Virus record (IMG/VR): IMGVR_UViG_2778261543_000007
DNA length: 10,385 nt
Strand: one strand, 5' to 3'
Source: a virus
Taxonomy: Duplodnaviria; Heunggongvirae; Uroviricota; Caudoviricetes
In this document: positions 1,186-1,533 of the stretch, piece by piece
How positions within the stretch are numbered: the stretch's first letter is position 1
How the letters are laid out: each line of letters begins with the position of its first letter
Program-made: the position numbers and the translations under genes
The notes under the pieces: generated by a model
Database searches by the model: none
What the model was told of the DNA's origin: nothing
The model's input: the letters and a program-made list of their open reading frames with translations, nothing else

Positions 1186-1533
1186 TCAGAACTCTTCGAT
1201 GTTCCAGCCACCACCTGCTTTCTTTGGTTTAACCGTTACCCCGATGATTCGGAACGGATACTGATCTGCGGCGACTTTGGTTTTCACCCTGGCGTCGTCG
1301 GTCCAGAATCCCCCTTTCACTTCGTGCAGTTCCATCTCTCCGGTGGCGAGCATCACAGCGAAATCGGGCGTATAAAACGTGTTATCAGCTAACCGCAGCT
1401 TGATACCCTCGAATCGATACCAGGCGATTTCCCCTGCACGTTTACGCTGCTCAAGGTGCTGGCAATACGCAGATTCTGTTTTGTTCATCTGGCCTGTTTT
1501 GAGTCGACCAAGAGCCTGTATCTGTTTTCTCAT
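1186..1533 (-). CDS. Small phage protein with a PD-(D/E)xK-type nuclease motif (DUF1064-like)
   Basis: 115 aa. Translation contains ...YTPDF... followed by ...ELHEVKG... (D ... E-x-K arrangement). SD GAGG 4-7 nt upstream of the ATG lies inside a palindromic operator. Confidence 0.55.
   Translation of the reverse strand: MRKQIQALGRLKTGQMNKTESAYCQHLEQRKRAGEIAWYRFEGIKLRLADNTFYTPDFAVMLATGEMELHEVKGGFWTDDARVKTKVAADQYPFRIIGVTVKPKKAGGGWNIEEF

Follow-up and report, generated by a model that had tools for sequence, protein, structure and literature searches.

We analysed a stretch of 10,385 nucleotides from a virus of the class Caudoviricetes (IMG/VR record IMGVR_UViG_2778261543_000007; hereafter the window), focusing on a gene on its minus strand (1186-1533) whose 115-aa product is assigned here to the protein family DUF1064. 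Considered as a whole, the evidence makes it likely that this protein is a nuclease of branched DNA, and that its gene heads a lytic operon located behind paired operators of a Rep-type repressor, in a Uetakevirus prophage. A clean natural argument for the role of the protein is provided by related phages, in which the DUF1064 gene and an unrelated gene of the RuvC resolvase family replace one another behind an identical upstream cassette.

The protein has counterparts of 97-100% identity in phiV10-like Uetakevirus phages, including PhiV10p45, which shares 98% identity, equal length and the same motif, and whose gene, like that of the window, is placed after the replication genes. It matches the Pfam model of DUF1064 (PF06356) at residues 18-93, albeit marginally (26.2 bits against a gathering threshold of 24.7), this model being built mostly from sequences of Firmicutes phages. 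Moreover, it matches PHROG 190, labelled 'Holliday junction resolvase', at E 1.2e-43, and identical or near-identical proteins are named DUF1064 in RefSeq. On these matches, with the Pfam score above the gathering threshold and the PHROG and RefSeq names in support, the window protein is a member of DUF1064, and it presents no material difference from other members such as PhiV10p45, gp36 of Pseudomonas phage F116 and ORF25 of Staphylococcus aureus phage phiH. The family is large, comprising 6154 clusters at 90% identity (by a word-indexed search) and 4633 clusters at 50% identity (at E<=1e-3), with members in phages of Escherichia, Klebsiella, Vibrio, Pseudomonas (F116), Burkholderia, Erwinia and Acinetobacter. 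Searches of NCBIfam and PADLOC with the window protein gave no match, and a sequence search of the PDB, using either the single protein or a 98-sequence profile, gave no meaningful one. A comparison with VRR-NUC (PF08774), which a preliminary description of this DNA had put forward, likewise came to nothing, as neither this family nor the T7 endonuclease I families matched the protein in Pfam at E<=0.01. DUF1064 was assigned to the PD-(D/E)xK superfamily in 2005 by Kosinski, Feder and Bujnicki (PMC1189080), and a survey of 2012 listed its function as unknown, suggesting a role in recombination from the co-occurrence of RecT, DnaC, DnaB and SSB (PMC3424549). In the papers found to mention the family there was no biochemical study or published assay of any DUF1064 protein.

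The preliminary description had proposed a restriction-endonuclease-like fold from the arrangement TPDF ... HEVKG, and the translated gene indeed contains FYTPDFAVML...MELHEVKGGF. While a D...ExK spacing alone means little, the proposal was borne out by conservation and by structure prediction. When the window protein was aligned with 148 sequences, each representing a different cluster at 50% identity, E20 was retained in 146 of the 149 sequences, D57 in 148, E or D at position 71 in 148, and K73 in 147; in a second alignment, of 98 sequences, the same four positions (E20, D57, E71 and K73) were likewise invariant or nearly so. The AlphaFold2 model computed on the 98-sequence alignment (mean predicted local distance difference test score, pLDDT, 89; predicted template modelling score, pTM, 0.80) returned a nuclease-like fold: E20 lies on a helix (18-32), D57 at the start of a strand (58-62), and E71 and K73 in a further strand (67-73), which is followed by a helix (79-91) and a strand (95-101). 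The modelled core is the canonical restriction-endonuclease-like one (alpha-beta-beta-beta-alpha-beta), with the superfamily's E...(P)D...(D/E)xK residues distributed over helix 1 and strands 2 and 3. Comparing the model with known structures using Foldseek yielded PD-(D/E)xK nucleases only, the top match (TM-score 0.55) being Hjc of A. fulgidus, and the matches in BFVD were phage endonucleases, one of them an endonuclease I. The archaeal resolvases Hjc and Hje (PDB 1gef, 2wcw, 1hh1 and 1ob8) are the nearest nuclease folds of similar size, yet at 9-15% identity they share no detectable sequence similarity with the phage protein; T7 endonuclease I (gp3), for its part, is a domain-swapped dimer. 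The window protein is predicted to be a minimal, single-domain, Mg-dependent endonuclease of the PD-(D/E)xK type, with E20, D57, E71 and K73 as candidate catalytic residues.

We turn to the DNA upstream of the gene, where a perfect 7+1+7 palindrome occupies 1537-1551 (TTACCTCTGAGGTAA on the plus strand). Read on the minus strand, the region is TTACCTCAGAGGTAAATCATG, in which the Shine-Dalgarno sequence (SD) GAGG, at 1543-1540, is followed by six bases and the ATG at 1533; the palindrome covers the SD, exactly as the preliminary description had noted. By itself, the palindrome cannot be regarded as significant, given that the window contains two perfect 7+1+7 palindromes where 1.5 are expected in Markov-1 simulations (44% of which reach two). 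The motif it contains, TTACC-N5-GGTAA, is another matter: allowing up to one mismatch, it occurs six times in the window against 0.16 expected, none of 200 shuffles reaches six, and all six copies are confined to intergenic DNA, which makes up 7.9% of the window. In the RefSeq record of phage epsilon15, seven sites are annotated as 'protein_bind, repressor, lysogeny', and all of them read (A)TTACC-N5-GGTAA(T). The more upstream copy before the DUF1064 gene (O1) corresponds to one of these annotated sites (epsilon15 35906-35922), just upstream of the RuvC-like gene of that phage, whereas the counterpart of the palindrome itself (O2; epsilon15 35969-35983), which overlaps the SD there too, carries no annotation in the record. 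Furthermore, the 194-aa repressor encoded in the window matches the structure of SPC32H Rep (PDB 5D50) at E 4e-42, such that the window sites have the sequence, the intergenic positions and the repressor family in cis that characterise the Rep operators of epsilon15- and SPC32H-type phages. The earlier suggestion that the palindrome is an operator is upheld by this motif enrichment, by the annotated epsilon15 sites and by the Rep homologue in the window.

Conservation among relatives points in the same direction. In 103 of 104 distinct upstream sequences, taken from a contig scan whose search pattern did not include the upstream site, a second perfect site is found at a distance of exactly 62 bp on the upstream side, with no variation in its 5-bp arms and 39 forms of its spacer, the hallmark of a site where a protein contacts two half-sites. 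The spacer of O2 exists in 15 versions, only the 5-bp arms being conserved, with the bases at its 3' end staying purines (the SD). All relatives found use the same TTACC/GGTAA half-sites, and the Rep homologue (4000-4584) is the presumed protein on both O1 and O2. Rep has been reported to act as a tetramer on palindromic DNA sites (PMC9638917), and its C-terminal domain resembles tetramerisation domains involved in DNA looping (PMC9986798). In phage ZX5, overexpression of the homologous repressor altered phage yield and the transcription of phage genes, and the authors concluded that the repressor is the key determinant of the conversion from lytic to lysogenic growth (PMC9782041).

Further copies of the motif were seen elsewhere. 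Two degenerate ones, with two mismatches each, lie at 3545-3559 and 3913-3927; the former, located just past a terminator (3574-3593) that follows the cro-like gene, carries a single mismatch in both phiV10 and E. coli strain E7, and the latter is situated between the two OR-like sites. Past the second of the OL-like operators, in the stretch 4704-4740, the first leftward gene (ATG 4738) has its SD within a further half-site-like GAGGTAA, meaning that the operator half-site and the SD sequence recur together. In the genomes of phiV10 and epsilon15 the same motif also precedes the genes for small terminase, head, tail fibre and lysis, only some of these copies being annotated in epsilon15. In these two phages the repressor appears to gate directly nearly every transcription unit.

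Between O1 and O2, the sequence CTATTGA is invariant in the relatives, and a T-rich -10 element abutting O2 is conserved. The operator pair at 4642 and 4704, similarly spaced by 62 bp, brackets a TTGACA (4676-4681, at the identical offset) together with a -10 element (TAATTA/AATTAT) lying against the second operator. On the strength of the conserved promoter elements and the PL-like offsets, we read 1537-1613 as a third Rep-controlled promoter of PL-like build; the layout of O1 and O2 matches that of the PL-like region, and the promoter is inferred from this shared geometry and from conservation. Transcription would start at about A1544, at the centre of the palindrome, and the leader, 11 nt long, would have the SD at its very beginning. 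A different minus-strand promoter was listed by the promoter scan (TTGATA-16 bp-CAAAAT, 1620..1593), overlapping O1, which falls in its spacer. We rejected it as probably not a working promoter because phiV10, epsilon15, SPN1S and BUCT554 do not conserve its -35, in contrast to the invariant CTATTGA. Upstream of O1, a GC hairpin followed by a T7 run is conserved and is annotated in phiV10 as a putative rho-independent terminator; having a stem of four pairs only, it was missed by the terminator scan. In the regulation that we propose, the cro-O-P operon would end at this hairpin and the DUF1064 gene would head a separate lytic operon. In the lysogen, the tetrameric Rep-type repressor would occupy both O1 and O2, and its presence on O2 would cover the end of the -10, the start site and the SD, preventing RNA polymerase from starting.

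The same upstream arrangement serves two different genes. In the epsilon15 RefSeq record, the slot equivalent to that of DUF1064, between a replication gene and the Eae-like gene, is taken by a RuvC-family Holliday junction resolvase (gp43/p24), which scores 25.7 bits against Pfam RuvC (cutoff 22.2). The sequences preceding the two genes can be aligned over the whole length between terminator and ATG, with a common junction ...AATTACCTnAGAGGTAAATCATG, and both genes share a cassette composed of terminator, O1, promoter, O2 and ATCATG. We searched viral contigs for ATTACC-N5-GGTAAATCATG and obtained 120 contigs, or 121 copies with that of the window. The gene at the cassette's ATG was DUF1064 in 99 and RuvC-like in 18; the remaining 4 had a DUF1064 that was frameshifted or truncated. 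None of the scanned cassette contigs carried both a DUF1064 and a RuvC-like gene, and the complete genomes of epsilon15 and phiV10 have one of the two apiece. RuvC-like phage resolvases (epsilon15 gp43/p24, RuvC of Lactococcus phage bIL67) have an RNase H-like fold, which is unrelated to PD-(D/E)xK; with slot and cassette identical and the genes mutually exclusive, the relation between DUF1064 and the RuvC-like gene is one of analogy by displacement, not homology. In other phages, the surroundings of the DUF1064 gene are in line with a resolving role: it is neighboured by a NinB/Orf gene (Pseudomonas phage F116) or is found in a post-replication position (S. aureus phages).

Since a single fixed cassette drives one or the other of two unrelated nucleases, and one of these belongs to an established resolvase family, there is good circumstantial evidence for DUF1064 having the same task. 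Elsewhere, the cutting of branched DNA is performed by RuvC-like, RusA, T7 endonuclease I or Hjc enzymes. In the mechanism we favour, the DUF1064 nuclease would cut Holliday junctions and similar branched DNA made by the phage's Exo/RecT recombination and by replication, rendering concatemers packageable. By this analogy, we lean slightly towards a role in resolving the branched intermediates that arise from Exo/RecT and replication before packaging. The fullest form of the proposal we regard as evenly balanced, namely that DUF1064 is a true resolvase of Holliday junctions and branched DNA, of the Hjc/T7-endonuclease-I structural class, interchangeable with the RuvC type in Uetakeviruses behind a Rep-controlled cassette in which an operator arm doubles as a ribosome-binding site and transcription starts in mid-palindrome.

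Fold alone does not fix the substrate of such an enzyme, and a different use for it was proposed by the authors of the original fold assignment (PMC1189080), that of a general or host-directed DNase or restriction-like enzyme, which would degrade host DNA or produce recombinogenic ends without being specific for junctions. Some records label homologues 'putative restriction endonuclease'. We consider this quite unlikely for the window protein, since its gene shares slot and cassette with a RuvC-family resolvase from which it is mutually exclusive, belongs to temperate phages where it stands beside recombination genes (Exo/RecT, NinB), and encodes a protein that matched no defence-system model and whose nearest nuclease folds, at comparable size, are the Hjc/Hje resolvases. 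Very improbable, in turn, is a protein that kept the nuclease fold as a DNA-binding or structural factor devoid of enzyme activity, as the E...D...(E/D)xK set is retained in 146-148 of the 149 sequences, a pattern expected of an active enzyme.

With regard to the palindrome, it could in principle act mainly in RNA, by folding into a hairpin that hides the SD (the second of two mechanisms raised in the preliminary description), or it could be a product of chance, as palindromes of this size do arise. A 6-bp stem with a 3-nt loop containing the SD is indeed the minimum-free-energy fold of the isolated 27-mer (-4.2 kcal/mol), but its z score is -1.0, with 29 of 200 shuffles equalling it, and in longer contexts z is near 0. 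The relatives' alignment shows only the arms to be conserved, with no compensating changes in the O2 spacer opposite the SD purines, so that neither stability above shuffles nor conserved or covarying pairing was found; Rfam returned for 1100-1750 only a sub-threshold chance match (snoR12, 19.6 bits against a gathering score of 39). In addition, the start site indicated by the conserved promoter lies in mid-palindrome, and transcription starting there leaves the 5' arm of the hairpin outside the mRNA, which is to say that this arm is probably not transcribed. Chance, for its part, is excluded by the six sites against 0.16 expected and by the partner site at a fixed 62 bp. We thus find both the RNA hairpin and coincidence scarcely credible, and the preliminary description partly supported, being right on the fold and the operator and wrong on the hairpin. 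A more serious alternative, though still unlikely, concerns the protein that binds the sites, which may chiefly be a phage regulator other than Rep, for example the 76-aa cro-like protein (3615-3845), acting in its place or alongside it. In lambdoid phages Cro and CI share operators, and the cro-like gene of the window adjoins the OR-like sites; on the other hand, the epsilon15 record labels the sites 'repressor, lysogeny', and the reported tetramer of the Rep family on palindromic sites fits their pairing.

The DUF1064 family and its predicted fold have been on record since 2005, and the repressor sites are annotated in epsilon15. What is added is modest: the interchange of DUF1064 and RuvC behind one cassette, a conserved promoter flanked by two operators at a constant distance of 62 bp, and the partner site that overlaps the SD and lacks annotation. 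The lytic genes past the replication genes appear to be under a repressor-gated promoter of their own, and hence independent of read-through, which is relevant to engineering or inducing phiV10-type prophages (present in ~10% of complete E. coli genomes). Should the resolvase reading be true, a tested function would become available for an uncharacterised family of ~4600 clusters at 50% identity. Otherwise, beyond tidy annotation, the findings have little significance.

As to the origin of the window, its DNA is 96.5% identical to phiV10 and 99.8% identical to E. coli prophages adjoining guaA; the prophage matching it in E. coli strain E7 has this position. The 601 bases around the DUF1064 gene are 96-98% identical to phiV10, vB_EcoP_ZX5, PAS61 and TL-2011b (phiV10-type phages of the genus Uetakevirus) and 83% identical to the Salmonella phages SPN1S and SPC32H, and this stretch is found in 530 of 5426 complete E. 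coli genomes. Judged by these identities, the window represents an E. coli prophage of the phiV10/epsilon15 type (Uetakevirus), located beside guaA. Its features are listed in the table.

Features of the window, with positions in nucleotides from its first base
Feature	Position	Strand	Remarks
DUF1064 gene	1186-1533	-	115 aa, ATG start; PhiV10p45 homologue
Shine-Dalgarno GAGG	1540-1543	-	formed by bases 4-5 of the O2 spacer plus bases 1-2 of the right arm
Operator O2	1537-1551		TTACC-N5-GGTAA, 0 mismatches; overlaps last base of -10, inferred start A1544 and SD
Inferred -10, TTTAAT	1551-1556	-	17-bp spacer; last base is first base of O2
Inferred -35, TTGATT	1574-1579	-	inside invariant CTATTGA
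Operator O1	1599-1613		TTACC-N5-GGTAA, 0 mismatches; 62 bp (start to start) upstream of O2
Terminator-like hairpin, GCGC-GATA-GCGC, then A and T7	1626-1645	-	just past stop codon of P-like gene
Lambda-P-like helicase loader gene	1651-2451	-
DnaT/O-like initiator gene	2433-3248	-
Small Cys/His-rich open reading frame	3264-3527	-	66 aa as annotated in phiV10
Cro-like gene	3615-3845	-	76-aa product
OR-like operators	3882-3896, 3930-3944; degenerate 3913-3927		between cro-like and repressor genes
Prophage repressor gene	4000-4584	+	194 aa, two helix-turn-helix motifs; SPC32H Rep homologue (PDB 5D50)
OL-like operator pair	4642-4656, 4704-4718		62 bp apart; after repressor gene, before leftward operon
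YqaJ-type Exo, RecT, methyltransferase and phosphatase genes	Exo/RecT at 5189-7120	+
Integrase gene	9129-10385	-	far end of window
Eae-like, then Ead/Ea22-like genes		-	past DUF1064 gene in minus-strand order

Two plus-strand open reading frames, 628-1392 and 1379-1546, were set aside as shadows of minus-strand genes supported by homology. The small Cys/His-rich open reading frame has no Pfam match and a weak PHROG match to endonuclease VII (E 2.7e-4). The phiV10 record shows one RecE-RecT fusion protein, whereas the window encodes Exo (YqaJ) and RecT separately. Lastly, within the DnaT/O-like initiator gene, at 2812-2950, we observed tandem repeats of 12 bp (x2.4), 24 bp (x2.6, 100% match) and 18 bp (x3.1). 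These look like origin iterons; the ori of lambda, likewise, lies inside gene O.
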